From IMG/VR virus record IMGVR_UViG_2974520824_000001, positions 7,539 through 71,538 of that record: a DNA stretch of 64,000 bases. One strand, given 5' to 3'. A model generated the notes under the pieces. It did no database searches. It was not told the DNA's origin and worked only from the letters and a program-made list of their open reading frames with translations. This stretch comes from a virus. Shown one piece after another: positions 25,831 through 40,898 of this stretch. The position numbers were made by a program, and so were the translations under genes. Within the stretch, counting starts at the first letter, position 1. Each line of letters opens with the position of its first letter.

Positions 25831-25847
25831 TACAACTGAATCTGATT

Positions 25848-25899
25848 GCGCGGCAAGGGTTTTCGATCACTGAATTCCCTTGTCGCGCTTTCGTTTCCG
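25848..25899 (+). terminator. putative factor-independent terminator of late operon
   Basis: GCGCGGCAAGGG...CCCTTGTCGCGC 12-bp stem (one G-U) followed by TTTCGTTTCC. Confidence 0.45.
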
Positions 25900-27347: not shown

Positions 27348-27485
27348 ATGAAGTTTGCGGTCTGCACTGCTAGCGGCAACGTCCTGGCACGTTTCGGAAA
27401 CGTGACGTGGGCACGTCGTTTTGCGCGTGAGAACAAACCGTGTGTTTTGTGGAATACCAAGACAAACAAGCAACTTCGCTTCTGA
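27348..27485 (+). CDS. small hypothetical protein (45 aa), first gene carrying the conserved GAGAGGAT leader
   Basis: ATG preceded by CCGAGAGGATAGGGA; not in ORF track (<60 aa); ends 10 nt before first tRNA-like element. Confidence 0.35.
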   Translation: MKFAVCTASGNVLARFGNVTWARRFARENKPCVLWNTKTNKQLRF

Positions 27486-27495
27486 GAGCAGTAAG

Positions 27496-27539
27496 GCCCG
27501 CAACGGTTTTCAACGTAGGTTCGATTCCTACGGCGGGTA
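27496..27539 (+). ncRNA. tRNA-like top-half element U1 (acceptor stem + T-arm, no anticodon arm)
   Basis: GCCCGC-AACGGTTTTCAAC-GTAGGTTCGATTCCTAC-GCGGGT-ACG; perfect T-loop TTCGATT. Confidence 0.5.
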
Positions 27540-27568
27540 CGTTATAGCGAAACACGCTATATGAGAGG

Positions 27569-27763
27569 ATGATTCAAATGGCGTTGAATCGTGAGCAGAA
27601 GAAAATGCTCGGAGATGCGGCGTTCGGCAAGGCAATCCAATTGGTCGAATTCTTCGGTGAAGACGAGACCACGGAAGCTCTTGCCGCACAAGGCATTAAA
27701 CCCAGCGAGGCGCGAGAGCAAATCGAAATCTGGTTCTCCAAGATTCCATCGACGTACAAGTAA
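27569..27763 (+). CDS. hypothetical small protein (cassette gene 1)
   Basis: Leader TGAGAGGATGATTCAAATG; consensus alignment suggests true start at second ATG 27578. Confidence 0.45.
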   Translation: MIQMALNREQKKMLGDAAFGKAIQLVEFFGEDETTEALAAQGIKPSEAREQIEIWFSKIPSTYK

Positions 27764-27775
27764 TGAATCACGTTC

Positions 27776-27828
27776 GGGCACAACGGTTTCCGCGCTAGCG
27801 GGCGGGGGTTCGATTCCCCCGGTGCCTA
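27776..27828 (+). ncRNA. tRNA-like top-half element U2
   Basis: GGGCAC-AACGGTTTCC(GCGCTAGCGG)-GGGGGTTCGATTCCCCC-GTGCCT-ACA; extra mini-hairpin in linker. Confidence 0.5.
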
Positions 27829-27863
27829 CAATGCACCAAATCGGTTGCAGGAGAGGATGAATC

Positions 27864-28157
27864 ATGGCTGACATCAAAGCACGCAATCGAATCTGCACCA
27901 ATTGCCAGGTCGATGTGGACGTGCGCCAATGTGATTGCAACGCAAGGGTTACCACGCTGATTTCGTGGGACTGCACACGTTGCGGCACAGAGGTTGTCAC
28001 CAGCGGCGGTCACGACGTTGATTGCCGCAAATGTGGTGCTTGCTACAACGGTTCAGGCCAACGTCTCCGCGACGATTGGCGTTCCAATCCTTCGGTCTAC
28101 GATGACGAAATCGGAGATATGGAAGGGTACGAATTGCAGCACGCGAACGATTGGTGA
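27864..28157 (+). CDS. Cys-rich small protein (putative zinc-binding)
   Basis: Leader GCAGGAGAGGATGAATCATG; CTNC...CDC...CTRC...CRKCGAC motifs. Confidence 0.5.
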   Translation: MADIKARNRICTNCQVDVDVRQCDCNARVTTLISWDCTRCGTEVVTSGGHDVDCRKCGACYNGSGQRLRDDWRSNPSVYDDEIGDMEGYELQHANDW

Positions 28158-28170
28158 CGTAATCACCGGA

Positions 28171-28211
28171 GGGACAACGGTTTTCGGGTAGGTTCGATTC
28201 CTACCGTCCCA
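28171..28211 (+). ncRNA. tRNA-like top-half element U3
   Basis: GGGAC-AACGGTTTTCG-GGTAGGTTCGATTCCTACC-GTCCC-ACG; preceded by hairpin GGTGACGTAATCACC. Confidence 0.5.
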
Positions 28212-28250
28212 CGCTTCAACCAAATCGGTTGGCAGAGAGGGTGGTTCACG

Positions 28251-28490
28251 ATGTCTGATTATTCCTTTCACATCGAAGTCACTGACACGACAGTGGCTTA
28301 CGAGTGTGAGGCAGACCGGGCAGAACGTGAGGGATTCGACAACGTGGCGAAACGTCAACGTGCAATTGCTTTGCACTTGAAGAACGCATACGAACACATG
28401 CGCGACATTTGCCCCGAAGGTTACCGGGTCGAAACGAAAATCGTTGTCTCACATGTCCCTAACGTCAACCCTGTTCTGAATAGACGCTGA
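28251..28490 (+). CDS. hypothetical small protein
   Basis: Leader CAGAGAGGGTGGTTCACGATG after hairpin CCAAATCGGTTGG. Confidence 0.45.
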   Translation: MSDYSFHIEVTDTTVAYECEADRAEREGFDNVAKRQRAIALHLKNAYEHMRDICPEGYRVETKIVVSHVPNVNPVLNRR

Positions 28491-28499
28491 ATCATGGTG

Positions 28500-28541
28500 G
28501 GCCGGAACGGTATTAGGTGGGTTCAACTCCCACCCCGGCTA
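28500..28541 (+). ncRNA. tRNA-like top-half element U4
   Basis: GGCCGG-AACGGTATTAG-GTGGGTTCAACTCCCAC-CCGGCT-ACA; acceptor stem identical to U7. Confidence 0.45.
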
Positions 28542-28577
28542 CAATGCGACGAAATACGTTGCAGGAGAGGATGGTTC

Positions 28578-29357
28578 ATGATGAACGACGATCTGGCTTA
28601 CGTGGCTAAGTGCTGCTTTCATTCCTCTGACGATCACAACCCCATTGGTGGTTGGGACGCCGGTTACTGCTCTGGAAACAGTTGCGGTTGCGAGGAATTG
28701 AGCGATGAGCGCGCCACGGTGCTTGAGGTCTTGAATCATGAGTACGGAACCGCTTTGACTGCAAGCGATTTGGAATACAAAAACGACGTTCCTCGTGAAT
28801 GGTCACACATTCTCAAGCTTGGACCGTATGGTCGGAATCTCGTAATCGACTTGACCAGCGCACGCGATGTGCATGGTTACGATGACGCGCTGACGACCTC
28901 CAATTACGAAGTCCTGCAAGAGAATTGGAAAGGCTACGACGCACTATGCGACGGTGGCTACTCCAATTGCTATTCCATTGGCCTGCAATTCGATGAGGCA
29001 TCCCCCGCCGATCTGGTTTCCACGGTCAAGTCTCTGGAAGACTATCCCGCACTTGATGATTCGCGAATGAGCGAGCTTGAGTGGGAATGGATTACAGAGC
29101 AGTGGAGCGACCACGGCATTCAGGATGCTCGAATCAAGCTGTCGGAGTTGCTATCTCACGATGGCAAGACGCGGTTTGAAATCGAATTGCCTGACGGTGA
29201 TTGGTTCGATGAGATGATTCGGGCCGACATCTTCGGTGACGATTCAAACGTTCCGTACTACGAATCGGGCGGCGGCGCTGTGTATCCCATTGACGAAATC
29301 CTTTCGGACAGTGCGACACTCGCCAAGTACGGTTCAATACTGTTTGCCCTGGTCTAA
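28578..29357 (+). CDS. hypothetical acidic protein (259 aa)
   Basis: Leader GCAGGAGAGGATGGTTCATGATG; in-frame ATG 28578 chosen over upstream track start 28494, which would read through U4. Confidence 0.5.
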   Translation: MMNDDLAYVAKCCFHSSDDHNPIGGWDAGYCSGNSCGCEELSDERATVLEVLNHEYGTALTASDLEYKNDVPREWSHILKLGPYGRNLVIDLTSARDVHGYDDALTTSNYEVLQENWKGYDALCDGGYSNCYSIGLQFDEASPADLVSTVKSLEDYPALDDSRMSELEWEWITEQWSDHGIQDARIKLSELLSHDGKTRFEIELPDGDWFDEMIRADIFGDDSNVPYYESGGGAVYPIDEILSDSATLAKYGSILFALV

Positions 29358-29366
29358 AGGGCAGGA

Positions 29367-29407
29367 GCGCCAACGGTTTTCGGTGAGGTTCGATTCCTCA
29401 CGGCGCA
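29367..29407 (+). ncRNA. tRNA-like top-half element U5
   Basis: GCGCC-AACGGTTTTCG-GTGAGGTTCGATTCCTCAC-GGCGC-ACG. Confidence 0.5.
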
Positions 29408-29442
29408 CGTATCCCAAACGGGAAACAAGAGAGGATGGAACA

Positions 29443-29727
29443 GTGGCGAATACTACCTTCAAAGGTGTTGAGATTTACCGGGTTTCGCGCAACAAGGCCA
29501 GTGGTACCAACGGTAACCCACGGTTCACATTGCACACGGATCGCGGCGAAATGCACACCGGCGTAGACGCTTCCCTTGGTTACGGCATCGAAAACCTGAC
29601 CAATAAGCGGCTCCCTGAGACGTTCGTGATCGGAAACCCCGGTGTCACAGTCGATTTGGTCGGTTGTGGCAGCCGACCGGATTCCAACATCATTCACGTC
29701 ATTCGGGACGGTAAACAGCTGATGTAA
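29443..29727 (+). CDS. hypothetical small protein
   Basis: Leader CAAGAGAGGATGGAACAGTG; GTG start; track ORF 29236 would read through U5. Confidence 0.45.
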   Translation: MANTTFKGVEIYRVSRNKASGTNGNPRFTLHTDRGEMHTGVDASLGYGIENLTNKRLPETFVIGNPGVTVDLVGCGSRPDSNIIHVIRDGKQLM

Positions 29728-29735
29728 TCCAAAGA

Positions 29736-29779
29736 GGGCCAACGGTTTTCGTTGGGGTTCGATTCCCCAAGGCCCACCA
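29736..29779 (+). ncRNA. tRNA-like top-half element U6 (3' end ACCA encoded)
   Basis: GGGCC-AACGGTTTTCGT-TGGGGTTCGATTCCCCA-AGGCCC-ACCA. Confidence 0.5.
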
Positions 29780-29822
29780 TGCTCCAATTCGTTTGGTGCA
29801 GTAGTGAACAGAGGATGGAAAC

Positions 29823-30269
29823 ATGGTAAGCAAGATCATTCTGGTGAATGCGTCTACCCAACTCGATCCGATCCGCAAAGGCATTGCGCAGGCACGACAT
29901 TCGTTGCGTGTTTGCGTCGATGGTGATGCGGTCAAGTTCAAAATCGATGGCGGCACTTGGTCGCCCGGTTACGGTGGCATTGATCCAGGATCGGATTACG
30001 CCTACTACCAACGCAATTCGGAAGCTGAGAAGTGCATCGCCATTGTCTTGAATGATGATGGCACGATGGAAGATCAGTGCTACACCTGGGAAACCGCACA
30101 GACTTACGCCCAACAGGGCAAGGTGGTTCGTGCGGTCCAGGCCGATGGTCACATGAGTATTGAAGCGATTCAACGACTCTGCGACGCCGACCGCGAAAGG
30201 TATTGGGACTGTTTCGATCCCGGTGACCAGTACACCGGTCCTACTCCGAGAGAGTTTGACGACGTGTGA
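29823..30269 (+). CDS. hypothetical protein (148 aa)
   Basis: Leader ACAGAGGATGGAAACATG after hairpin CACCA...TGGTG. Confidence 0.5.
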   Translation: MVSKIILVNASTQLDPIRKGIAQARHSLRVCVDGDAVKFKIDGGTWSPGYGGIDPGSDYAYYQRNSEAEKCIAIVLNDDGTMEDQCYTWETAQTYAQQGKVVRAVQADGHMSIEAIQRLCDADRERYWDCFDPGDQYTGPTPREFDDV

Positions 30270-30475
30270 AAACCATTGATCCAAACATGAACGCGGACAA
30301 GCAATATCGCGAAGCGTTCATGTTACGCCATAGAGCAGTAGCCATCGGAGATATCGAAATGTCAAGGTACATAGACGATTTGATATGGATGATGGCCTGC
30401 TCAATCGCCGAAGGGTTGCCGCAACCCTGGTCCCAATTCTATCCAATGTTTCAAGAAGAATTTGGGATCGAATAG
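30266..30475 (+). CDS. hypothetical small protein
   Basis: 69-aa ORF overlapping upstream stop by 4 nt; no leader cassette. Confidence 0.4.
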   Translation: MKTIDPNMNADKQYREAFMLRHRAVAIGDIEMSRYIDDLIWMMACSIAEGLPQPWSQFYPMFQEEFGIE

Positions 30476-30480
30476 TGGTG

Positions 30481-30522
30481 GGCCGGAATGGTTTTCGGAG
30501 GGTTCGATTCCCTCCCCGGCTA
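30481..30522 (+). ncRNA. tRNA-like top-half element U7
   Basis: GGCCGG-AATGGTTTTCG-GAGGGTTCGATTCCCTC-CCGGCT-ACG. Confidence 0.5.
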
Positions 30523-30564
30523 CGTAATCGGTTGAACCACAACCGGATACAGAGAGGATGGAAC

Positions 30565-30966
30565 ATGACCACGACTACCCTTGAGGACCGTGCTGCCGAG
30601 CTTGGCAAGGACTACGGAAAGGCTGTTGGATCATGGGTCGTTGACGGTAACACGTCAAAAGAGCAGTGCGACAAGCTGATTGAGGGTATCGATACGTGCG
30701 ATCCCGAAGTCATGGACTTGATTCCATCGCCTCTGTCCGGCGAATTTGCCGACGGCCCAACGGTTTACAGCGTTCTAAAAGAACTTGGCCTTGATCCGGC
30801 AGTGTTCGATGAACAGTTCGATCACTTGATCGACGTTTACGAAGAAGCATTCAGCGAAAGCTGGTGTGACACAGTCTATCAGGCCGCTCATGCCAATCAT
30901 CCTGACTACGATCCGTGCTCGGTTTGTGGTCTGTATGGGCATAAGTGGAAAGAACACGTCGATTGA
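30565..30966 (+). CDS. hypothetical acidic protein
   Basis: Leader ACAGAGAGGATGGAACATG; ATG 30565 in frame with track ORF 30385. Confidence 0.5.
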   Translation: MTTTTLEDRAAELGKDYGKAVGSWVVDGNTSKEQCDKLIEGIDTCDPEVMDLIPSPLSGEFADGPTVYSVLKELGLDPAVFDEQFDHLIDVYEEAFSESWCDTVYQAAHANHPDYDPCSVCGLYGHKWKEHVD

Positions 30967-31101
30967 ATGTATCGCGAAAACCCGTACCTCCCAACGCCTT
31001 TGAGGTGGTACGAGTACGTGATACACAATGGACGAAAACACCGTGCGCTCAAGAACTTTCGCGGTTTGACCGTGATACTTGAGTGCGTGGAGTAGTGGTT
31101 A

Positions 31102-31143
31102 TCCCCGATGGTCGTAGCCGTGGTTCGACTCCACGGCGGGGAA
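31102..31143 (+). ncRNA. tRNA-like top-half element U8
   Basis: TCCCC-GATGGTCGTA-GCCGTGGTTCGACTCCACGGC-GGGGA-ACG; 7-bp T-stem. Confidence 0.45.
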
Positions 31144-31188
31144 CGAGCGCGCCAATTCCGGTGTGCCACAAAAAGAAAGAGGATGGTA

Positions 31189-31416
31189 ATGGGTATGGCT
31201 ACCGTACAGAACCGCCAATCGGCCTACGTTCGTAGGCTCCGAGTAGGCGACAAGTTCAACGAAGACGGTACTACCTGGATCGTGACCCGAGAGCCGGAAG
31301 TAATCGACGGCGCAGAGGTTGCGGTCTACCTGAAACCCCTTCCGTCACCGCCACGTTCGCGGTCGCGACGATTCTCCTACGCAATGGATGCGCGGGTTCA
31401 CATCGTCCGGTCCTAA
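31189..31416 (+). CDS. hypothetical small protein
   Basis: Leader AAAGAAAGAGGATGGTAATGGGTATG; start ambiguous between ATG 31183, 31189 and 31195. Confidence 0.4.
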   Translation: MGMATVQNRQSAYVRRLRVGDKFNEDGTTWIVTREPEVIDGAEVAVYLKPLPSPPRSRSRRFSYAMDARVHIVRS

Positions 31417-31434
31417 GTGAGTAGACGGGGGATA

Positions 31435-31498
31435 GCCCGGTTGGTACGAATTCGGTTGAAAGACACCGAATTTCGCAAGTTCAATCCTTGCGCGGGCA
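31435..31498 (+). ncRNA. tRNA-like element U9 (acceptor + long internal hairpin + T-arm; atypical)
   Basis: GCCCG...AATTCGGT-TGAAAGAC-ACCGAATT...GCAAGTTCAATCCTTGC-CGGGC-ACT; T-loop TTCAATC. Confidence 0.35.
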
Positions 31499-31565
31499 CT
31501 ATCTCAGATGCTATTCTGAGAACACCAACGAATCTCGTTGGGACACACAAAGAAAGAGGATGGAT

Positions 31566-32753
31566 ATGAGCCAGGAAACGATGGAATGGTTGAACAAGTA
31601 CATTCTGGTTGGGAACTGCAAGGCCCGACCGAATGCTTGGCACAACCGTCCTGAATTCCGCGAGGCAAATGGTTTGGAGGAAAACCACTTTCAAGACCCG
31701 ATTCCGTATCGGGTTGTGGTTGACCGGCTTTTCAACTGGAAAGCAATCAGCGCCCCGAAAGCGAATCTCATCCCGGTTCCGAAACGAGACGCCAATTGGT
31801 TTGACGCAGACGGCAATCCGTTCAAGATTGTCATGTCGTCCGAGTACGACTACAAAAAGCGTGAAATCATCGGTGGCGAACAGGGTATCGTCAAGTCAGA
31901 TACCTTGGAGCACATCGCAACTCACAGTGGCAAGTACAAAATCCACGATTACGAACAGTGGCTTTTGCAGTTGCAGTCCAACGTGATTGGCGATACGCTC
32001 TCGATTCTCGGTGCCGGTCTACTTCGCAACGGTGCGCAAGCCTACGTTCAGGTGGCACTGCCAGAAACCGTGCAGGACAACAACTCTGGTATGGAATTCG
32101 TTCCGTACATCATGGGGTCAACGTCGCTGGACGGTTCGATTCCGAGCACTTACAGCGCGGGATCGCTTCTGGTGGTTTGCGATAACACCAGAGACGGAGC
32201 GATTGCACAGGCGAACCAGTCGGGTCGCATCTACAAGGCCAAGCACACGTCGAAATCCCTTGATACGGATAGCATTAAAGACGTGCAGCAGGCGTTGGGA
32301 ATCGTCCACCAGACCGCCGAGTCCATGAAGCATGAATTTGCTGAACTGGCCGCTATCGACATGAACCGTCGGCAGACGCTGAAAGTGCTTGATATCATTC
32401 AGCCTATCCCGAAGGAAAAAGACGGTGCGACCAAGCGACAGGTTGTAATCGCGGAAAACAAGCGAGAGGGGTTGCTGCACGCAATCTTTCGCGATCCCAC
32501 AGGCGGCGCGGAATGGAAGAACACCGCGCTTGGCCTGAGCAATGGCGTCTCCACGTACTTCACTTGGAACACCAGCGTTAAGGGAAATCGCTTGGAGCGC
32601 AACGCCGAAAAGGCCATCAAGGCTGGCGTTGAGCGTCGGAAAGCGTTGGAGTTGGGCGCGATTGAATCGGGCGCAACATTCAGAGACGTTGACCGGCAAA
32701 CCATGATGGCGATTGCTCACGTCATGAATCGACCGGAGTTGGTCGGCAAGTAG
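31566..32753 (+). CDS. hypothetical protein (395 aa), largest cassette gene; possibly a DUF932-like phage/plasmid protein (unverified)
   Basis: Leader AAAGAAAGAGGATGGATATG after two hairpins; the family resemblance is a recollection only. Confidence 0.5.
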   Translation: MSQETMEWLNKYILVGNCKARPNAWHNRPEFREANGLEENHFQDPIPYRVVVDRLFNWKAISAPKANLIPVPKRDANWFDADGNPFKIVMSSEYDYKKREIIGGEQGIVKSDTLEHIATHSGKYKIHDYEQWLLQLQSNVIGDTLSILGAGLLRNGAQAYVQVALPETVQDNNSGMEFVPYIMGSTSLDGSIPSTYSAGSLLVVCDNTRDGAIAQANQSGRIYKAKHTSKSLDTDSIKDVQQALGIVHQTAESMKHEFAELAAIDMNRRQTLKVLDIIQPIPKEKDGATKRQVVIAENKREGLLHAIFRDPTGGAEWKNTALGLSNGVSTYFTWNTSVKGNRLERNAEKAIKAGVERRKALELGAIESGATFRDVDRQTMMAIAHVMNRPELVGK

Positions 32754-32759
32754 TAAGGA

Positions 32760-32805
32760 GGGTAGCTCTGGTGAGCTTAGTTCAGGTTCGATTCCTGACT
32801 ACCCA
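32760..32805 (+). ncRNA. tRNA-like element U10 (acceptor + small D-like hairpin + T-arm)
   Basis: GGGTAG-CTCTGGTGAGCTTAG-TCAGGTTCGATTCCTGA-CTACCC-ACG. Confidence 0.5.
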
Positions 32806-32847
32806 CGTAAGCCGTTGACAGTCAACGGAATACAGAGAGGATGGAAC

Positions 32848-33168
32848 GTGCGAATCCCCATGAGGACGAAGTATGTCCGCGAGGATCACGCCTTGCTGAA
32901 AAGCAATGTGTACGTTGATGGTTCAAAGATGATCCAAGTCTTTTCGGCCATCGGCGAACCGCTTCTGACGGCAACCGTGTGTCTTGAGGCATACGGTGAA
33001 AAGCCCGATGAGGGAAACGTTTTCATCAAGACGTGGTCCGAAAACGAAGGTGTCTTTGAGGCACTGCACAAGGCGGGGGTGATTGGCAACGCGGTGCGAA
33101 TGATTCCGGTCGGTGGTCATGATGCTCAAGTTGCCGAATGCCCTCTGCTCGCGAAAGGTCGTTTCTAA
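32848..33168 (+). CDS. hypothetical protein
   Basis: Leader ACAGAGAGGATGGAACGTG after perfect hairpin CCGTTGACAGTCAACGG; GTG start (alternative ATG 32860). Confidence 0.45.
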   Translation: MRIPMRTKYVREDHALLKSNVYVDGSKMIQVFSAIGEPLLTATVCLEAYGEKPDEGNVFIKTWSENEGVFEALHKAGVIGNAVRMIPVGGHDAQVAECPLLAKGRF

Positions 33169-33169
33169 C

Positions 33170-33415
33170 ATGGCATTTGAGACACGGATCAGAAATCGGA
33201 ACACGATTGAAAAGGTCAATCCTTCAACCGGTCACGTCATCGCCAAAGCTGTCAGAGCACAGCCGGGAGCGAATTGGCATGTCGGAGCAGAGATTCAGAC
33301 CGATATGGGAAAGAAGATGACCAACGTCGGAGAGATCGCGGCCCATCTTCCCGAAGTGATGCAACGAAAGCTCGCTTTGAGCTGGGTTGATTCACTGCCT
33401 TTCAATCTGTACTGA
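33170..33415 (+). CDS. hypothetical small protein
   Basis: ATG 33170 two nt after upstream TAA, in frame with track ORF 33113. Confidence 0.4.
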   Translation: MAFETRIRNRNTIEKVNPSTGHVIAKAVRAQPGANWHVGAEIQTDMGKKMTNVGEIAAHLPEVMQRKLALSWVDSLPFNLY

Positions 33416-33424
33416 ATCACGGTA

Positions 33425-33466
33425 TGCCGGAACGGTTTTCAGTGGGGTTCGATTCCCCGCCCGGCA
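33425..33466 (+). ncRNA. tRNA-like top-half element U11
   Basis: TGCCGG-AACGGTTTTCAG-TGGGGTTCGATTCCCCG-C-CCGGCA-GCA. Confidence 0.5.
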
Positions 33467-33504
33467 GCAATGCGGCGAATGACCGCAGGAAAGAGGATGG
33501 AAAC

Positions 33505-34044
33505 ATGAAATTCGTTGACCTGAGCCAGAATCCGCCCGCCGAGGTTACGGTTCTGACCTTGCGAGACATCGCGTTCAAAATCAACGGGAACGACGCATCG
33601 ACCTACTCTGGATACGCTCGTGTTTCAGTCCTCCAAAACTGGCACGACGATCCCGAAATCGAAACTCCCGCACCGGATTACACGATCAGTGAAGTTGACT
33701 ACTGGCTTCCCGAGCGTGTCTCCGAGTGGGATATGTTGTATTCCAATGAGATTCAGCGCGAAGAAGACCGAAAGGCCGAACGTCTCAAAAAGGAAAAGAT
33801 CAGCAAGTCCGATCTGATCGAAACCCTGTTGGATCAAGCCAAAGATGTGGAGCGCCGAAACTCTCGGTGCTACAACCACAATCGCGGCAACTCCATGCAG
33901 GACGGTCGGAAACGGGTTCTGGCTCTTGAAGGTGCCAAAGATTTCGTCGAGTCCATGCTTGGCGAATCATCCATGACGAAGGAGCAGCGTACCAAGTGGA
34001 ACGAATTGCTGAGCCAGGCCAAAGCTCACGTGAAAATGCAGTAA
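33505..34044 (+). CDS. hypothetical protein with charged coiled-coil-like C-terminal half
   Basis: Leader GGAAAGAGGATGGAAACATG after hairpin TGCGG..CCGCA. Confidence 0.5.
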   Translation: MKFVDLSQNPPAEVTVLTLRDIAFKINGNDASTYSGYARVSVLQNWHDDPEIETPAPDYTISEVDYWLPERVSEWDMLYSNEIQREEDRKAERLKKEKISKSDLIETLLDQAKDVERRNSRCYNHNRGNSMQDGRKRVLALEGAKDFVESMLGESSMTKEQRTKWNELLSQAKAHVKMQ

Positions 34045-34199
34045 AGGTCAAGCGTGCCAGAGCATTTGGCGTGAACCTGTTTTTCGCAACGTGTGACGAG
34101 TGCCGATGCTGGATCAAATCTGGTGTCGGCCAACACGTTTGGGAACAGAGAACACAGGCGCGTGCAGCGGCACTAGCACATCGGCACTGAATTAAGGTG

Positions 34200-34241
34200 G
34201 CCCACAGTGGTTTTCGCCAGGGTTCGATTCCCTGGGTGGGC
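34200..34241 (+). ncRNA. tRNA-like top-half element U12
   Basis: GCCCAC-AGTGGTTTTCG-CCAGGGTTCGATTCCCTGG-GTGGGC-GCG. Confidence 0.5.
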
Positions 34242-34270
34242 GCGCTGACCAAAGCGGTCACAAAGAGAGG

Positions 34271-34675
34271 ATGGAAATGAAATCGGTACGAGATTGTGCG
34301 ATCACGTTCGTCGTCGTATCCGCAATCATCGCAAGCTTTTTCGCGGTCTATATGCTGTTCGCTCCAAAGGCGAAGGCAGACGGCTACGACTTCGGTTGCG
34401 AGACAATTCATTGGGGGTTCCTCGGATCGCAACGTCGCATCATCTGTGACGGGCCGAAACGTCCCGATGGATCGTGGGAGCGCGGTCGCGTCATTCTGAC
34501 ACCTGCCCACTACGTTCCCAGAAGTTGTTATTTCGGAACGTATTCCAGCAGTTGCAGCGGCGGTTACCAAGTTGATACCACCGTGCAGGCCAGAGAGTCT
34601 TACATCGTTTTTGATTCAAACGTTCTGCCGGATGAGCCGGGATGGCTGCCGCCAGGAACGGACACTCTGCGATGA
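34271..34675 (+). CDS. secreted/membrane protein (N-terminal signal-anchor)
   Basis: Leader CAAAGAGAGGATGGAAATG; hydrophobic N-terminus ITFVVVSAIIASFFAVYMLFAPKA. Confidence 0.5.
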   Translation: MEMKSVRDCAITFVVVSAIIASFFAVYMLFAPKAKADGYDFGCETIHWGFLGSQRRIICDGPKRPDGSWERGRVILTPAHYVPRSCYFGTYSSSCSGGYQVDTTVQARESYIVFDSNVLPDEPGWLPPGTDTLR

Positions 34676-34782
34676 AAGCTCTTGCGGCCCTGTTGATTTC
34701 GACAATCGTTTTGACCGGCTGTGAAGCGCCGCGAGGAACGACCGACGAACACCCGGTTTACGCAACCTGCGTGAATCGCTGA
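34672..34782 (+). CDS. 36-aa lipoprotein precursor (micro-ORF)
   Basis: ATGA overlap with upstream stop; MKALAALLISTIVLTGC has a lipobox-like LTGC; not in ORF track. Confidence 0.4.
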   Translation: MKALAALLISTIVLTGCEAPRGTTDEHPVYATCVNR

Positions 34783-34791
34783 ATCAAGGTG

Positions 34792-34835
34792 TCCCCCAAT
34801 GGTTTTGAAAGGCAGGTTCGATTCCTGCCGGGGGA
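34792..34835 (+). ncRNA. tRNA-like top-half element U13
   Basis: TCCCCC-AATGGTTTTGAAA-GGCAGGTTCGATTCCTGCC-GGGGGA-GCG. Confidence 0.5.
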
Positions 34836-34875
34836 GCGTTACCGGCCATAGCGGTCGGAACAGAGAGAGGATGGA

Positions 34876-35082
34876 ATGTATTCTGTCACAGTTCAATTGA
34901 ACCATGTGAAGGATTCTGACGACCTGTTGCTCCAACTTGTCAGACTACAAATGGCATTCAATCAGGACGTGGACTGGCTCGCGAAGCTCGCTCAACGAAC
35001 GAATCGTGGGTGCGGTCCATTTCCGTTAGCCTACAAGGGCATTCAGCGGATCGGCACGATTGAGGTCATGCGCAATGGCTAG
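34876..35082 (+). CDS. hypothetical small protein
   Basis: Leader ACAGAGAGAGGATGGAATG. Confidence 0.4.
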   Translation: MYSVTVQLNHVKDSDDLLLQLVRLQMAFNQDVDWLAKLAQRTNRGCGPFPLAYKGIQRIGTIEVMRNG

Positions 35083-35362
35083 GCAGCAGGCGGGGAAAGC
35101 GAAATCCATTCAGGCAGAACCGAAACGAGGTCACAAGTCGAGTACCGCAGACTTGCAGGCCAAAACTCTCAGAAAGGCCCATCGTCAGGGTATGGCGTGG
35201 GATGATTACGAGGTAACGGCTCTAGTGAAAGGAATCGAAAGGGACGCAACAACTTTCGATATCGCCATGTCGATTGGTCGTAGCTACTACGCGGTCATGA
35301 CGACTCGCCGCGCTGTCGGTTTCGCCATGCGACACGCCAACGCGATTTGGGGTGACAAGTGA
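35075..35362 (+). CDS. putative small DNA-binding protein (helix-turn-helix-like)
   Basis: ATG 35075 overlapping upstream stop by 8 nt; TFDIAMSIGRSYYAVMTTRR segment looks HTH-like. Confidence 0.4.
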   Translation: MARQQAGKAKSIQAEPKRGHKSSTADLQAKTLRKAHRQGMAWDDYEVTALVKGIERDATTFDIAMSIGRSYYAVMTTRRAVGFAMRHANAIWGDK

Positions 35363-35508
35363 GAAACAAGGTCCGAAAGAAGGTTCGCGCCAAGAACGTT
35401 GAAAAGCACCGCAGGCGTTTGGAAGATCAGAGATTGATTGACTTCCACAAGACGTTGGCCGATGAGATTCGCGCCGAACGTCAACGCCAAACAGAATCCA
35501 ACAGGTAA
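35359..35508 (+). CDS. 49-aa basic Lys/Arg-rich micro-protein
   Basis: GTG in GTGA overlap with upstream stop; not in ORF track; followed by strong terminator. Confidence 0.3.
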   Translation: MRNKVRKKVRAKNVEKHRRRLEDQRLIDFHKTLADEIRAERQRQTESNR

Positions 35509-35520
35509 CCATTTCAAATG

Positions 35521-35583
35521 AAAACCCCGGTGAGGCAATCGATTTCGCGTAGAAGTCGTGCGTCTCTCCGGGGTTTTCGTCGT
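35521..35583 (+). terminator. rho-independent terminator (bidirectional-looking)
   Basis: AAAACCCCGG(TGAG)...(CTCT)CCGGGGTTTTCGTCGTT: GC stem flanked by A-tract and T-tract. Confidence 0.55.
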
Positions 35584-35681
35584 TGGGGGTGGCTGAGGTA
35601 CCGGCCATGCTATGCTCGTCAGCGAGCGTGGCGTACAGCCGGTCGCACGGCCATCTCCGCAGGTCAACGAGAGGGTCGAAA

Positions 35682-35900
35682 GTGCTTGACAGAGTACGGA
35701 TTTGGGACGGCGAGAACGGAAACGTTCATATTGAACTAAAGGATGAAGACGACGTGCCGTTTTCTCACACCGTGATTCCTCCGCATGAGTGGAAAGAGTT
35801 GCGAGACAATATGATTAAAACGTTCCCCGCCAACGTGTCGGTTTCACTGCTCACGGACTACTTAGTTGCGCTAGGTATCCATGCACTTGAAATGCGGTAA
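35682..35900 (+). CDS. hypothetical small protein
   Basis: GTG 35682 after GAGGGTCGAAA; in frame with track ORF 35583. Confidence 0.35.
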   Translation: MLDRVRIWDGENGNVHIELKDEDDVPFSHTVIPPHEWKELRDNMIKTFPANVSVSLLTDYLVALGIHALEMR

Positions 35901-35957
35901 GAGTCAATGCATTTCATTTGGGATAGAAGAAAGGAGACGACACGCCGGTACAGCTAC

Positions 35958-35986
35958 TTGAATATGTAGGCACTGTGACATACTCT
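35958..35986 (+). promoter_or_regulatory. sigma70-like promoter candidate (TTGAAT-17-TACTCT)
   Basis: -35 TTGAAT 35958-35963, 17-nt spacer, -10 TACTCT 35981-35986, upstream of gene 36042. Confidence 0.3.
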
Positions 35987-36041
35987 TAGGTGGTCTGTCG
36001 ATTCCGGCAGGCAACCTCACTGCACCAAGAGAGAGGTAGCT

Positions 36042-36794
36042 ATGGCTGCACGGCCACGGAGAAGTTCTGTCAAGGAACCATCCCAAATCGAAAAGGACGC
36101 AAGCGAATTCGGCGTCGGAGTGCGTTGTGGCGGTTGGCGGCTCGGTTTGCTTGTCGCCCGAAACGTCATGAAGGTTGGTCAAGGTACTCGCTCGGACTTG
36201 CCCACTAGTGGGCAGGTCGATGGGCAAGTAACGAAGGTGTCAGCGAACCAATTTGCCAAGCTAGCAGGGGTCAGCTCATCCACGGTTGATTACTACTACA
36301 ACGCTTGGCAATTCGCTGCGAAGGCCAGCCTCGTTCCAGACGCCGAAAAGGTGAAGCCAGGAGACGAAGACATCTGCGTTGACGCCGATGCCATCGAAGA
36401 CGAGGACAACCCTCGCACTCACTGGTCACACTTTTACGGCCTTGCGAAGAATCCTCCGAAGGAATCCAAAAAGGCTGAGAAGAAACAAGATTCAAAGCCT
36501 GAACCGGAATCTGACGAGGATGAATCAGACGCCATCGATGAAGACTTCGGCATCAGTGAGGCCGATGCGATGACGGAAGATGAACGGGCAGAAGCGGATT
36601 CGTCAATCAATCGAAACGAACTGCTCGAAATCCTAGAGAGCGCACAGGGTTTGAAGTCGCGTCTTTCTCGGATCGATTCAATCACCGGTCACGAATCTCT
36701 TGCAGCGCAGATCGCAACGGCTGCAAGCGAATTGGCCGATTTGGCTAGCGGAATGGCAGCAACGGACGAAAAGCCGCAACTCCGCGCCGTCTAG
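36042..36794 (+). CDS. putative HTH DNA-binding protein with acidic C-terminal half; contains palindrome copy 2
   Basis: GAGAGAGGTAGCTATG RBS; VSANQFAKLAGVSSSTVDYYYNAWQ looks HTH-like; Asp/Glu-rich region 36360-36600. Confidence 0.5.
   Translation: MAARPRRSSVKEPSQIEKDASEFGVGVRCGGWRLGLLVARNVMKVGQGTRSDLPTSGQVDGQVTKVSANQFAKLAGVSSSTVDYYYNAWQFAAKASLVPDAEKVKPGDEDICVDADAIEDEDNPRTHWSHFYGLAKNPPKESKKAEKKQDSKPEPESDEDESDAIDEDFGISEADAMTEDERAEADSSINRNELLEILESAQGLKSRLSRIDSITGHESLAAQIATAASELADLASGMAATDEKPQLRAV
36199..36214. repeat. 16-bp palindrome copy 2 (TGCCCACTAGTGGGCA), in CDS, encodes PTSG
   Basis: Exact palindrome. Confidence 0.8.
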
Positions 36795-36802
36795 GGGGAA
36801 TA

Positions 36803-36834
36803 GGCCAGTCTCGGGGGTCTGGCCGAAACCTTTT
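36803..36834 (+). terminator. possible terminator hairpin directly upstream of tRNA-Gln
   Basis: GGCCAGTC-TCGGGG-GTCTGGCC then GAAACCTTTT. Confidence 0.35.
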
Positions 36835-36905
36835 GCCCTGTAGTGTAATTGGCAACACTTGGGACTTTGGTTCCCACATTTCAGGTTCGAGTCCTGGCAG
36901 GGCAG
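36834..36905 (+). tRNA. tRNA-Gln (anticodon UUG)
   Basis: Full cloverleaf: acceptor TGCCCTG/CAGGGCA, D-arm GTGT-AATTGGCA-ACAC, anticodon arm TGGGA-CTTTGGT-TCCCA (U33, UUG, R37), T-arm TCAGG-TTCGAGT-CCTGG; 72 nt, no encoded CCA. Confidence 0.85.
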
Positions 36906-37062
36906 CGATCCCACGCTTTTGAAGGGAGGATAGGCAGACCCGATGGGCTGAGAACGTCCCTTGGACGTAAAACTTAACTTTTGCGCGAACACCATGTGAG
37001 GCAGTAAACCGCAATCCGGCTCTGCGGTAAGGGAAATGGATCACCCTTGAGAAACCGGCCAA

Positions 37063-37131
37063 GCCCCATGACTGGTCCCAACGCCAGCTTTAGCACCTGG
37101 CAGCGGGAGGGTTCGATTCCCTTGTGGGGCA
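37063..37131 (+). ncRNA. tRNA-like element U14 (7-bp acceptor, D-arm and T-arm present; anticodon region too short)
   Basis: GCCCCAT-GA-CTGG-TCCCAACG-CCAG-19 nt-GAGGGTTCGATTCCCTT-GTGGGGC-A-CG. Confidence 0.5.
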
Positions 37132-37158
37132 CGCTATTTCAGCAGAGAGGATGGATCG

Positions 37159-37719
37159 ATGGCGAACGCCGTTCAAAAGGCCGAATCGATTGGCAAGATG
37201 GCTACAAAGTCAGGATGGAAAGGCGGCATGGATTCCGAAGTGCGCGAAGGCATTCGGATCACAAAGCTTGAACTTGTCCGAAACGAAGACGAGTACGCCT
37301 ATTTCATCTGGCACGGCTCAAAGCTGGTCGAATCGAACTATCAGATTTTCGACGGCCCGCTCATTCCCATCGATTCCAAACGTAAACTCCTGCAATACAT
37401 TTCGGGCTGGCCTAGTCTAATTGAACTGTTCCAGACATATCCCGAATTCAATCGGCCCATGCTTGTGCAGCAATTCCGCAAGCTGCCGTTTTCATTTGAA
37501 GATGACAATGACACGATCATCGATTCCCTTATAAACAAACAGCTTTGGTGGTACGAACATGAAGGTGCCACAATTCGTTACGATCAATCAAAACTCAAGC
37601 GCAACAGCAAGTTTCGCATCGTAGACATTGGGCACCGTAAGCTCTTTCACGCCGACTGCGAGCAGGCCGGTCTTCGATCATTTCATTTGGATACCTTGCT
37701 TGAGGTCCGTGAAAGATGA
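37159..37719 (+). CDS. hypothetical protein (186 aa)
   Basis: Leader GCAGAGAGGATGGATCGATG immediately after U14. Confidence 0.5.
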   Translation: MANAVQKAESIGKMATKSGWKGGMDSEVREGIRITKLELVRNEDEYAYFIWHGSKLVESNYQIFDGPLIPIDSKRKLLQYISGWPSLIELFQTYPEFNRPMLVQQFRKLPFSFEDDNDTIIDSLINKQLWWYEHEGATIRYDQSKLKRNSKFRIVDIGHRKLFHADCEQAGLRSFHLDTLLEVRER

Positions 37720-40848: not shown

Positions 40849-40898
40849 CCCCTCAGGCCCGGTGGCCATCCTCTCCTGGGTCTGAGGGTTCAAAAAGG
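40849..40898 (+). terminator. long GC hairpin, possible terminator
   Basis: CCCCTCAGGCCC...GGGTCTGAGGG; no U-tract. Confidence 0.25.

Follow-up and report, generated by a model that had tools for sequence, protein, structure and literature searches.

A repeated intergenic unit in the cassette array

The window analysed here, a 64,000-nt stretch of viral DNA (positions 7,539 to 71,538 of IMG/VR record IMGVR_UViG_2974520824_000001), is from Mycobacterium phage Indlulamithi, and window coordinate + 7538 gives the coordinate in NC_048824.1. It carries a rightward array of small cassette genes punctuated by repeated intergenic units, in which a stop codon, a mini tRNA-like element, a short hairpin, a leader and a start codon follow one another in this order, the leader being present in 14/14 units (Table 1). 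When the upstream regions of all annotated genes were tabulated, the leader ARAGAGGATGGAA was found 0-6 nt upstream of the start codon in 14 genes in the range gp41-gp63 (gp41, 42, 43, 44, 45, 46, 48, 49, 50, 51, 53, 55, 57 and 63), with weak copies in three more, gp40 (27348), gp60 and gp61. An earlier note on this DNA had described a near-identical leader before at least 13 genes, a weaker copy at 27348 and a variable hairpin between tRNA-like element and leader; all three were recovered, the hairpin measuring 5-10 bp and occurring in every unit, and the three leader strings quoted there were located at gp42, gp48 and gp55.

Table 1 Features of the cassette array, of the gene-free region upstream and of anti-leader 2 (window coordinates)
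Feature	Position	Strand	tRNA-like element	Hairpin	Leader	Start codon	Other
Gene-free region	25831..27347	+					1517 nt, between lysis genes and array
Terminator-like hairpin after gp39	25848..25898	+		12 bp			then TTTCGTTTCC
Promoter-like island	25927..25955	+					gaacTTGACAggtgtcaa...; conserved with contig 3300037439_000038
Promoter-like island	26210..26247	+					TGgTATAGT = extended -10; conserved with contig 3300037439_000038
Predicted domain directly 5' of AL1	26866..26933	+					closing helix 26866-26877 with 26923-26933, MFE fold
Anti-leader 1 (AL1)	26935..26948	+					TTCCATCCATCCTC; upstream of array, coding strand
Hairpin directly 3' of AL1	26949..26972	+		10 bp			GGTACAGGGG-TTTT-CCTCTGTACC, one G.U pair
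Weak leader before gp40	27333..27347	+	none	upstream	CCGAGAGGATAGGGA
Unit before gp41	27486..27577	+	27496-27539	27543-27561	27562-27577 TGAGAGGATGATTCAA	ATG 27578
Unit before gp42	27764..27863	+	27776-27828	27832-27849	27850-27863 GGAGAGGATGAATC	ATG 27864
Unit before gp43	28158..28250	+	28171-28211	28214-28235	28234-28250 AGAGAGGGTGGTTCACG	ATG 28251	GGGTGG variant without internal ATG
Unit before gp44	28491..28580	+	28500-28541	28545-28563	28564-28580 GGAGAGGATGGTTCATG	ATG 28581 (annotated)
Unit before gp45	29358..29442	+	29367-29407	29409-29426	29428-29442 AGAGAGGATGGAACA	GTG 29443
Unit before gp46	29728..29822	+	29736-29776	29780-29800	29808-29822 ACAGAGGATGGAAAC	ATG 29823
Unit before gp48	30476..30564	+	30481-30522	30524-30550	30551-30564 AGAGAGGATGGAAC	ATG 30565
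Unit before gp49	31098..31188	+	31102-31143	31147-31166	31176-31188 AAAGAGGATGGTA	ATG 31189
Long unit before gp50 (DUF932)	31417..31565	+	31435-31498	31502-31541 (hairpins)	31553-31565 AAAGAGGATGGAT	ATG 31566
Unit before gp51	32754..32847	+	32760-32805	32807-32833	32834-32847 AGAGAGGATGGAAC	GTG 32848
Unit before gp53	33416..33504	+	33425-33467	33471-33487	33490-33504 AAAGAGGATGGAAAC	ATG 33505
Unit before gp55	34191..34276	+	34200-34242	34246-34260	34264-34276 AGAGAGGATGGAA	ATG 34277
Unit before gp57	34783..34875	+	34792-34836	34838-34861	34864-34875 AGAGAGGATGGA	ATG 34876
Terminator-like hairpin after gp59	35521..35585	+
Weak leader-like site before gp60	35668..35681	+			ACGAGAGGGTCGAAA
Weak leader-like site before gp61	36027..36041	+			AAGAGAGAGGTAGCT
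Unit before gp63	37063..37158	+	37063-37131	37133-37143 (weak)	37144-37158 AGAGAGGATGGATCG	ATG 37159
Anti-leader 2 (AL2) hairpin	40850..40888	+		13-bp stem 40850-40862 / 40875-40888

T and acceptor stems of at least 11 bp were present in 11 of 13 tRNA-like elements, compared with 1.3% of flank shuffles, and Rfam matches were weak and sub-threshold (tmRNA model, 27782-27821 in the gp42 unit; mascRNA model, 34200-34241 in the gp55 unit). The gp42 element has an extra arm in its linker, the gp63 element a long linker, and the gp50 element is fuller and includes an anticodon-arm-like hairpin; the units preceding the likely gp50 counterparts in Cuke (380 aa) and MrMiyagi (377 aa) are likewise long, and the tRNA-like part of the gp43 unit is ~91% identical to a Cuke unit. 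For gp53, the leader indicates the ATG listed in Table 1 instead of the annotated GTG 33442, which falls within the tRNA-like element, while gp44 has a second ATG at 28578 beside the annotated one. The strong hairpin after gp59 (-40 kcal/mol) probably ends the first array operon.

The motif is restricted to the array. The + strand has 11 exact copies of AGAGGATGG from 28566 to 37154, and with one mismatch allowed the window has 30, compared with 12.8 +/- 3.1 in shuffled sequences (0/100 shuffles reached 30); a stray copy at 58732, within the last codons of gp99, was rejected as a leader. A search for the 12-mer GAGAGGATGGAA, which the earlier note had proposed, returned five exact copies, all inside the array. 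The ribosome-binding sites of structural, lysis and replication genes are of the GGAGG, GAAAGG or AGGAG types, and GGATGG is absent from the 20 nt before the start in all 93 remaining genes that have upstream sequence, so the comparison with late genes does not reduce the motif to a generic strong Shine-Dalgarno.

Conservation of the leader and its pairing with 16S rRNA

The repeated unit with its GGATGGAA core occurs about 70 times over seven divergent phage lineages, and together with one metagenome fragment these lineages provided 72 non-identical leader sites. Across the ~70 sites GG, U and nearly always the next GG-AA are fixed, a uniformity that is partly by construction since the search tolerated one mismatch to GGATGG, and no GGAGG variant was found among them. 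Nearly every unit has its own stem sequences in the adjoining hairpin and tRNA-like element, which argues that selection, not copying, has preserved the leader motif.

The extreme 3' tail of mycobacterial 16S rRNA, which we take to be 3'-UCUUUCCU-5', is complementary to the 5' half of the leader, ARAGAGGA, over up to 8 bp, and this half is therefore a Shine-Dalgarno. The same 16S end agrees with the pairing described in PMC3203893. What the lineages share as a core is GGATGGAA, preceded by a purine-rich 5' flank, and not the GAGAGGA given as the Shine-Dalgarno in the earlier note. The flank has A or G wherever a position would face a U of the 16S tail, and duplexes with the tail were more stable for leaders than for other genes (-12.8 vs -9.5 kcal/mol, p = 1e-4). 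The invariant UGGAA has no pairing with the tail, and the leader is more than a generic Shine-Dalgarno. The ATG within GGATGG, which had been described as out of frame and 5-7 nt before the start, is indeed mostly out of frame in the array, but lies 5-10 nt upstream and is in frame in 3/13 leaders (gp49, gp50, gp55).

Two conserved complements of the leader

The new result of this analysis is the presence of two conserved leader complements, anti-leader 1 (AL1) and anti-leader 2 (AL2). AL1 is complementary to GAGGATGGA (9 bp) or GGATGGAA (8 bp) and is the sole TCCATCC in the 71.5-kb genome. It is identical in seven lineages, each time on the array strand and upstream of the array, in gaps that have almost nothing else in common, and is the longest exact string shared by the gaps of Indlulamithi, Cuke, MrMiyagi and c20599. 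Its duplex energy was -15.4 with leaders and -7.6 with other genes (p = 7e-9).

Local folds predict AL1 to be unpaired; as a point against the antisense reading, in the MFE folds of the Cuke-group ncRNA it pairs in part with an upstream GGGAUGGUAUGGAA-like stretch. The hairpin directly 3' of it (z = -4.45 in Indlulamithi, -4.4 to -4.9 overall) has five different stem sequences in the seven lineages, with 7/10 pairs changed on both sides, a covariation score reached by 0/500 shuffles. On the 5' side, the predicted helix-closed domain has an equivalent helix in the consensus fold predicted for the relatives. The surrounding gene-free region, which had no Rfam match at E <= 1, contains several further islands conserved in related phages, two of which would be candidate promoters.

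AL2 precedes the exonuclease/recombination genes. Its loop (40863-40874) reads TGGCCATCCTCT, and CCATCCTCTC (40866-40875) is complementary to GAGAGGATGG. In a search of the + strand of the whole genome AL2 was the top partner of the consensus leader (-20.4 kcal/mol; mean -6.4, sd 2.6); AL1 ranked fifth over the 71.5 kb, and the two were the only intergenic sites in the top 12. Since the 8-mer CCATCCTC is not rare, with a third copy inside gp11 at 255, the anti-leader case rests on conservation and context. AL2 is syntenic in three of the lineages, Indlulamithi, Cuke and MrMiyagi, and in the latter two the complement again lies in the loop of a hairpin in the same gap, with different stem sequences. 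Moreover, leader flanks and AL2 change in step from lineage to lineage: for Indlulamithi leaders, pairing is stronger with the phage's own AL2 than with that of Cuke (-19.7 vs -16.5, p = 0.0012), and the preference is reversed for Cuke leaders (own AL2 -16.0 vs -14.1, p = 0.009). An unrelated lineage (contig 3300043754_000046) has the same kind of units with a different leader, GGAAAGGGGAU, and a long hairpin (z = -4.46) whose loop holds one exact complement, AUCCCCUUUCC.

These data leave the interpretation of the earlier note partly supported. Coordinated translational control is strengthened by a leader exceeding a generic Shine-Dalgarno and by AL1 and AL2, whereas transcriptional control by the leader gains no support, no promoter-like site lying within the units. 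Modular acquisition of genes behind a fixed leader has one clear example, an extra cassette in MrMiyagi relative to Cuke with breakpoints inside repeated units.

Proposed antisense control and alternative explanations

We consider it somewhat more probable than otherwise that the leader is the shared ribosome-binding part of a standardised intergenic module under antisense control. Its A-R-A-G-A-G-G-A half would act as the Shine-Dalgarno on the 16S tail, while the invariant U-G-G-A-A, turning canonical GGAGG into GGAUGG, would make it a private address matched by two same-strand antisense elements: AL1 (UUCCAUCCAUCCUC), left single-stranded between two helices where a long conserved noncoding region reaches its 3' end, and AL2, displayed by a long hairpin in its apical loop. 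The tRNA-like elements would be cleaved by RNase P and RNase Z of the host, so that each cassette mRNA has a protective hairpin a few nt from its 5' end and then an open leader, and RNAs bearing AL1 or AL2 would pair with this leader over 9-10 bp in competition with the 30S subunit. All cassette genes would thereby be controlled together at the post-transcriptional level, and most likely shut off as the anti-leader RNAs build up. Mitochondrial tRNA punctuation and the MALAT1 mascRNA likewise have tRNA or tRNA-like folds at which RNase P and RNase Z cut to free the units, and mitochondrial punctuation places them between coding units. Unlike these, the Indlulamithi elements are minimal (acceptor, T arm and D-like linker, no anticodon arm), occur in a DNA phage and come together with a fixed hairpin and leader, and their cleavage is putative.

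Some observations weigh against antisense control. Predicted accessibility was not significantly higher for leaders than for other ribosome-binding sites (0.51 vs 0.45, p = 0.057), AL1 and AL2 may stay untranscribed or be hidden within larger folds, and AL1, if carried solely on the array's own transcript, would face its targets at a stoichiometry of 1 to 14. The low-GC lineage L235 has like units with canonical GAGGAGGAAA in the leader position and no leader complement within 8.6 kb upstream. The latter finding also favours an alternative that we consider unlikely, namely that the leader is simply an optimised Shine-Dalgarno with its spacer, made uniform by unit duplication and recombination, and that its complements are ordinary local RBS-sequestering or structural sequences, anti-SD-like by necessity. 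Units do recombine, the 5' half pairs with 16S rRNA, strong Shine-Dalgarno sequences pair with any anti-SD-like C-rich run, and AL1 could also pair with the gp40 site of the first cistron (-14.6 kcal/mol). Against it, the U and GGAA that are unpaired with 16S are fixed in ~70 sites of seven lineages, with no GGAGG variant, while adjacent stems diverged freely; both anti-leaders carry an A opposite that U and fit the leader better than the 16S tail does; AL2, ~150 nt from gp68, shows no match to the ribosome-binding site of that gene; and leaders and AL2 covary.

An inverted DNA site and an antisense RNA are formally the same sequence, and a phage DNA-binding protein, possibly the HTH protein gp58 or the MerR-like gp61, could recognise double-stranded GAGGATGGAA at each cassette start and, inverted, at AL1 and AL2. 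The precedent would be the Cluster A stoperators, 13-bp asymmetric DNA sites at which a repressor blocks elongation and which, like the leader, have many intergenic copies in one orientation relative to transcription. We regard this as quite unlikely. The site is short, asymmetric and in one orientation throughout the operon, extra copies lie close to probable promoters, a tandem CCATCCATCC makes up AL1, as expected of two half-sites, and the array encodes HTH proteins. However, the core ends 1-7 nt from the start codon, at Shine-Dalgarno distance, whereas stoperators keep no such distance and lack an RNA-structure context; RNA helices with G.U pairs valid on the + strand only lie on either side of AL1, and AL2 lies in hairpin loops with covarying stems. 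In the unrelated lineage, a loop that holds the exact complement of a different leader would be unexpected for a protein site. Stoperators are also contrasted with the start-associated sequences discussed below in PMC3203893.

Very unlikely, in our view, is a phage or host RNA-binding protein or endoribonuclease that recognises the leader and represses or cleaves early messages as a class. It would suit a single-stranded motif of 8-13 nt that is invariant and marks the ribosome-binding sites of one gene class, and the ACA-R-GGAUG context resembles the CsrA SELEX consensus. In the same way, T4 RegA and RegB are proteins that shut off one phage gene class through a shared ribosome-binding-site feature. 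Nevertheless, a Pfam scan of 20 array proteins returned no CsrA, RegA or RegB-like family, and AL1 and AL2 would be left unexplained unless they were decoys for the same factor. Finally, that the ATG in GGATGG is a decoy or upstream start modulating the real one, a role suggested in the earlier note, is barely credible, since this ATG, although present in nearly all leaders, varies in frame (32/26/8 in 66 family sites) and distance (5 to 11 nt in the family), directly follows the 16S-pairing GGA without usable Shine-Dalgarno spacing, is missing from GGGTGG variants and opens no conserved ORF.

The antisense reading has parallels in known systems. The SAS motif of Cluster K mycobacteriophages (Pope et al. 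2011, PMC3203893) is a 13-nt asymmetric sequence 3-8 nt upstream of the start in 11-19 genes, each behind an intergenic gap of unusual length; consistently with our leader, it combines a Shine-Dalgarno core with conserved positions unable to pair with 16S rRNA, K1-type genomes have one copy on the complementary strand, and the proposed role is translational. Roughly half of the SAS are preceded by a structured element, ESAS, 17-bp inverted repeats that the authors judged not to be RNA hairpins (PMC3203893). In CrimD we found the complementary-strand copy in a gene-free gap, where a long hairpin carries it in its loop, while Keshu has none despite 17 SAS, which counts against antisense control. 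The SAS sequence, GGGATAGGAGCCC, differs from the leader, the phages are unrelated, ESAS are not tRNA-like and the antisense copy is not universal. The 6C/B11 sRNA of Actinobacteria similarly exposes single-stranded C-rich sequences in loops or beside hairpins and binds G-rich sites in several mycobacterial mRNAs without a chaperone such as Hfq (PMC6486639). It is a host sRNA with heterogeneous targets, whereas the Indlulamithi targets are built identical and the seed A matches a non-canonical U.

A further likeness to the proposed mechanism is c4, a phage antisense RNA encoded upstream in its targets' own operon, released by RNase P, which blocks translation at the ribosome-binding region. 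It is described for the immI operon of phages P1/P7 (Hartmann et al. 1995, as cited in PMC11143913). Unlike the Indlulamithi array, c4 belongs to another host group, serves one target operon with two short sites and has no tRNA-like punctuation between genes. If the antisense reading is true, one RNA element would address at least 14 standardised leaders at once, and our data suggest that a single RNA switch controls the translation of the whole gene set.

The leader and the repeated unit of the gp40-gp63 array

The genome of Mycobacterium phage Indlulamithi (NC_048824.1, 71,538 bp), the sole member of its genus, matches the window over bases 7539-71538 at 100% identity, and all genes of the window lie on the + strand. 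Structural and lysis genes finish at 25830 (window numbering, here and below) and are followed by a gene-free stretch, by an array of small, mostly orphan genes (gp40-gp63, 27348-37719) and, downstream of the array, by the replication and recombination genes. Of the 20 array proteins scanned against Pfam, only gp50 (DUF932) and gp55 (a CDGP domain) gave a match. The genome encodes the HTH proteins gp58 and gp61, and neither an immunity repressor nor an integrase is annotated in it.

Using the 30 nt upstream of every annotated gene, we found the leader ahead of 14 array genes (gp41, 42, 43, 44, 45, 46, 48, 49, 50, 51, 53, 55, 57 and 63), exactly those whose upstream intergenic gap measures about 85-250 nt, with weak copies ahead of gp40, gp60 and gp61; the shared leader that the earlier note had described ahead of the cassette genes is therefore real. 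Its motif in Indlulamithi is ARAGAGGATGGAA, and AGAGGATGG has 11 exact copies on the + strand between 28566 and 37154 and, with one mismatch, 30 matches in the window against 12.8 expected (0/100 shuffles reached 30). The 93 other genes for which upstream sequence exists all lack GGATGG near the start, and their sites are of the GGAGG, GAAAGG or AGGAG type, so the leader is not a generic Shine-Dalgarno (SD) sequence equally common at late genes, the outcome that the same note had named as fatal to its reading. The family consensus from 72 non-identical sites is A-R-A-G-A-GGATGG-AA, in which GG and U are invariant and the only real core variants are GGGTGG and GGATGA (3 sites each), an invariance that is partly by construction since sites were gathered with at most one mismatch to GGATGG. 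The core stands 1-7 nt from the start codon, with modes of 2 and 4.

The mycobacterial 16S rRNA ends in ...CCUCCUUUCU-3'. The leader segment A-R-A-G-A-G-G-A pairs with 3'-UCUUUCCU-5' of this tail over up to 8 bp, and the purine-only variation of the flank is that expected for A-U or G.U pairing with the U-run. With d the distance from core to start codon, the last paired A lies 3 + d nt from the start, in keeping with SD placement (4-10 nt). Duplexes with the 16S tail reach -12.8 kcal/mol for leader genes versus -9.5 for the rest (p = 1e-4), with some other genes at -22; the leader therefore holds a good but not exceptional SD. Opposite the U that follows GGA stands a C, which a canonical site would meet with G, and GGAA finds no partner in 16S rRNA. 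Ribosome pairing gives no explanation for the invariance of U-G-G-A-A and, judged on sequence, the leader is more than a generic SD. The 16S pairing described for the start-associated sequences (SAS) of Cluster K mycobacteriophages agrees with the tail used here (PMC3203893).

Each leader closes a repeated unit that spans the stop codon, often TGAATCANGGTG, to the next start. The unit opens with a mini tRNA-like element, made of an acceptor stem of 5-6 bp, a linker of 10-11 nt (AAYGGTTTTCG), a T stem of 6 bp and the loop TTCGATT, and followed by a discriminator A and CG; a hairpin of 5-10 bp begins 2-5 nt beyond the CG, where the earlier note had placed one, and a short purine- or CA-rich stretch leads to the leader. 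Almost every unit has stems of its own sequence, with pairing preserved. T and acceptor stems together reach at least 11 bp in 11/13 elements versus 1.3% of flank shuffles, and the coaxial acceptor and T helix (~12 bp), T-loop and discriminator are those of the mascRNA and tmRNA TLD type. Consistently, Rfam at relaxed thresholds gave sub-threshold matches to the tmRNA and mascRNA models on the units.

Several other identities of the unit were rejected. ARAGORN and Rfam at gathering thresholds called only a true tRNA-Gln (36834-36906) and none of the array elements, which lack D and anticodon arms and are not tRNA genes. Integron gene cassettes (IntI, attI, attC) share with the array only the cassette-like layout; no integrase is annotated, and the repeats are tRNA-like, not attC. 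One promoter per cassette was dropped because a scan for sigma-70-type promoters came up empty in every unit and gave fewer sites than shuffled sequence did. The leader also resembles the reverse complement of GGTTCGATTCC and pairs with the T arm of its own unit in 2/6 MFE folds, which we judge incidental because this duplex (8 bp, interrupted by a bulge and a mismatch) faces competition from the much more stable T arm. Accessibility of the leader was not significantly higher than that of other ribosome-binding sites.

The tRNA-like elements (13 of them at 27496-37131) are of two coupled flavours across the family, in which linker AAYGGTTTTCG goes with T-loop TTCGATT and linker AHTGGCAKACA with T-loop TTCGAGT; this coupling suggests a putative tertiary contact between a D-like linker and the T-loop. 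In several of them (gp42, gp63 and c9693 units) the linker includes an additional arm. The element before gp50 (31435-31498) is nearly a whole tRNA, with acceptor, D-like linker, an 8-bp anticodon-arm-like hairpin and T arm, and received no ARAGORN call; the likely gp50 counterparts in Cuke (380 aa) and MrMiyagi (377 aa) likewise follow long units of ~200 nt. An unannotated 42-codon ORF (30967-31095), which begins in a TGAATG overlap with the gp48 stop and occupies the extra 130 nt ahead of the gp49 unit, may be a small coupled gene. At least gp53 needs a new start on the evidence of the leader: its annotated GTG (33442) lies inside the tRNA-like element, and the leader indicates ATG 33505, giving 179 aa versus the annotated 200 aa.

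Coordinates of the noncoding features (window numbering unless another record is named)
Feature	Position	Setting	Remarks
Gene-free stretch	25831-27347	after the lysis genes	1517 nt
Promoter-like islands	25927-25955 and 26210-26247	in the gene-free gap	conserved with one relative
AL1	26935-26948	in the gene-free gap	+ strand
Terminator-like hairpin	27235-27255	between AL1 and gp40	
Strong terminator-like hairpin		after gp59	
AL2	40863-40874	224-nt gap, methyltransferase-exonuclease genes	12-nt loop of 13-bp hairpin
CrimD antisense SAS hairpin	L278 8915-8965 = CrimD record 58814-58864	after a terminator	

Two elements complementary to the leader

A search with the reverse complement of the leader returned a single + strand match, TTCCATCCATCCTC, here called anti-leader 1 (AL1), which holds the only TCCATCC of the 71.5-kb genome. 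Exactly one copy of the identical 14-mer, lying upstream of the array and on its strand, was found in the cultured phages Cuke, MrMiyagi and Fowlmouth and, likewise placed, in contigs 3300009693_000002, 3300020599_000001 and 3300037439_000038. It forms the longest exact string common to the gaps of Indlulamithi and of Cuke, MrMiyagi and c20599 (16-17 nt; shuffles, mean 10.4 and maximum 14 nt). AL1 is predicted to be unpaired, between a domain-closing helix directly 5' and a stable hairpin directly 3' (z -4.4 to -4.9). This hairpin is found in five different sequences, with 7/10 pairs changing on both sides and 89% of cells paired, a score that 0/500 shuffles reach; read on the other strand, its G.U pairs would become C.A mismatches, which points to a + strand RNA. 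The AL1-leader duplex (9 bp) has a predicted energy of -15.4 kcal/mol, versus -7.6 for the other 96 genes (p = 7e-9). A leftward leader or inverted unit was rejected for AL1, as no minus-strand ORF is conserved and no inverted tRNA-like element adjoins it, and so was a natural external guide sequence for RNase P, as the 3' RCCA and the T-arm layout are absent.

Cuke gp034 (L004 4545-4694, minus strand), the only minus-strand gene annotated thereabouts, overlaps AL1 and its hairpin, has no MrMiyagi counterpart and is probably a misannotation. Upstream of the small terminase gene gp110, a site (62263-62292, GCGAGATGGAATATG) pairs unusually well with AL1 (-16.6 kcal/mol); gp110 is the only non-array gene to do so, and this may be chance. 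Short islands common to related phages are scattered through the gene-free stretch (GCGATAACGGA at 26714, GAAAACTACATAGCGG at 26263, TGACCAGGACTTTT at 27162, and the promoter-like islands). The stretch looks like at least one structured noncoding RNA of a class without Rfam counterpart; Rfam at E <= 1 gave no match in the 1.5-kb gap. The motif RGGGTTTTC / ACGGTTTTC recurs at 25856, 26672 and 26955, in tRNA-like linkers, in gap hairpin loops and in the AL1 hairpin of two lineages, as well as just 5' of the second anti-leader, AL2, in Cuke (L334 ~6353) and MrMiyagi.

AL2 contains CCATCCTCTC, the exact complement of GAGAGGATGG over 10 bp. The same gap in Cuke and MrMiyagi holds a long hairpin with a different stem, whose loop contains TTCCATCCTCC or CTCCATCCTCC. 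When the whole + strand was scanned for partners of the consensus leader, AL2 ranked first (-20.4 kcal/mol versus a mean of -6.4, sd 2.6) and AL1 fifth, and these were the only intergenic sites in the top 12. Both are unpaired in predicted folds, and their contiguous complementarity to the leader (9 and 10 bp) is above the 7 nt expected at the least of an antisense RNA and its target.

Leaders and AL2 covary. Indlulamithi leaders are conserved on their 5' side (GAGAGGATGG) and Cuke leaders on their 3' side (AGGATGGAA), and in each phage its own AL2 covers the conserved side. Indlulamithi leaders pair better with their own AL2 than with that of Cuke (-19.7 versus -16.5 kcal/mol, p = 0.0012), and Cuke leaders better with theirs than with that of Indlulamithi (-16.0 versus -14.1 kcal/mol, p = 0.009). 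Beside this reciprocal best match stands a separate pair in an unrelated lineage, IMGVR_UViG_3300043754_000046 (109 kb), which has at least 13 units punctuated by tRNA-like elements with the leader GGAAAGGGGA(U) (L197; L332 742-12520). The 14.6 kb searched there contain one AUCCCCUUUCC, an exact leader complement on the same strand, in the loop or apical part of a long intergenic hairpin inside the array (L332 12053-12165; z = -4.46), and the chance of this 11-mer in the sequence searched is below 0.01.

Units in other phages and the Cluster K precedent

The unit architecture with leader core AAAGGATGGAA was found in Cuke, MrMiyagi and Fowlmouth, in three metagenomic viral contigs and in many activated-sludge and digester contigs; in Cuke and MrMiyagi arrays the motif is present in every long intergenic gap. 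A prophage scan of 185,579 bacterial genomes revealed no unit arrays, only single chance matches and one short mis-binned fragment. Compared with Cuke, MrMiyagi contains an additional cassette, and the alignment breaks inside the flanking units, which therefore act as recombination joints, in support of the acquisition of genes behind a fixed leader that the earlier note had proposed.

In more distant viral contigs, which differ in base composition, the tripartite unit is combined with other leaders, ATGAGGAGGAAA in L235 and GGAAAGGGGAT in L197/L332. L235, a low-GC contig, carries six ATGAGGAGGAAA units on the minus strand (8675-11900), and their hairpins are all TTGACAC-N4-GTGTCAA, so that here the hairpin sequence itself is kept. 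No complement of its leader, a canonical GAGGAGGAAA, was found in the 8.6 kb upstream. L235 is consistent with a private antisense partner being possible for a private leader only, and also shows that the unit can work without such a partner.

The closest described system is the SAS of Cluster K with its upstream elements, ESAS (PMC3203893). Both SAS and the present leader lie a few nt before starts, after long gaps, and combine an SD core with conserved non-pairing positions, whereas motif and upstream elements differ; with ARAGAGGATGGAA as its motif, the leader is not a Cluster K SAS proper (GGGATAGGAGCCC with at most 2 departures). The literature searched gave no description of an Indlulamithi-type system. 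Several K1 genomes carry a single SAS on the complementary strand (PMC3203893). In CrimD this antisense SAS, with one mismatch, forms the apical loop (10 nt, CCUCCUAUCC) of a long hairpin (z = -4.41) located in a 422-nt gene-free gap; in Validus and Amelie (L327, L328) it likewise occupies a hairpin loop, within a gene-free gap that follows a terminator. Keshu (L326/L329) has the hairpin with another loop and lacks the antisense copy, yet keeps 17 SAS, so the parallel is suggestive and not general. Keshu further carries a second repeated leader, CACAACTGAATAG, ahead of several genes.

A candidate RNA switch for a gene class

From the motif, its restriction to the array, its complementarity to AL1 and AL2, their structural display and the covariation, we infer the following steps. 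The array would be transcribed from the promoter-like islands, with a first operon ending at the terminator-like hairpin after gp59. RNase P and RNase Z would cut at the tRNA-like elements, so that each downstream message would carry an open leader and, 2-5 nt from its 5' end, a hairpin. RNAs bearing AL1 or AL2 would then base-pair with this leader in competition with the 30S subunit; the duplex predicted is stronger than that of SD and anti-SD. Since AL2 stands in front of recombination/replication genes, the most natural reading is that cassettes would be shut off as the next gene class is expressed. As precedents for such antisense pairing we take the mycobacterial 6C sRNA, whose C-rich loops bind several mRNA targets independently of a chaperone (PMC6486639), and the P1/P7 c4 antisense RNA, which work cited in PMC11143913 describes as released by RNase P from the operon it controls.

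Among other explanations, a protein or nuclease site is possible; it would leave the complements unexplained, and no CsrA, RegA or RegB-type Pfam family was found among 20 array proteins. A DNA operator present in two orientations is formally possible and is disfavoured by the coupling to SD distance, the strand-specific G.U pairs, the display in loops and the second lineage. Duplication of units that keeps a plain strong SD uniform leaves unexplained a fixed U-GGAA amid freely diverged stems, as well as AL1, AL2 and the covariation. A Cluster A stoperator would be positioned independently of translation signals, and all copies here are at SD distance from a start codon. Nothing favours an upstream-ATG effect, nor an upstream ORF or leader peptide, since the ATG within the leader has no fixed frame to the start (32/26/8) and opens no conserved ORF. 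The earlier interpretation is partly supported: coordinated translational control and modular acquisition have support, and a role of the internal ATG in initiation has none.

As predicted from sequence, the leader is of the start-associated type with a concrete candidate antisense partner. Our tentative overall reading, to which we give somewhat less than even credence, is that an actinobacteriophage family, together with more distant relatives infecting other hosts, has an early region of interchangeable cassettes in which tRNA-like cuts, protective 5' hairpins and a private non-canonical leader would operate under one or two RNAs mimicking the anti-SD (AL1, AL2), an RNA master switch for a whole gene class. 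By analogy, the same logic may lie behind the SAS of Cluster K.

Mycobacteriophage start-associated sequences have been without known function since 2011, and the present leader adds a second, unrelated example together with a candidate partner in the form of conserved antisense elements. If the reading is true, a single RNA would allow a lytic phage to control the timing of dozens of small genes that are rapidly exchanged, the swapping of such genes as ready-to-express cassettes would be explained, and minimal tRNA-like elements would be seen to punctuate the mRNAs of DNA phages. Joined as a module, tRNA-like element, hairpin and leader would also make a compact multi-gene expression tool for mycobacteria.
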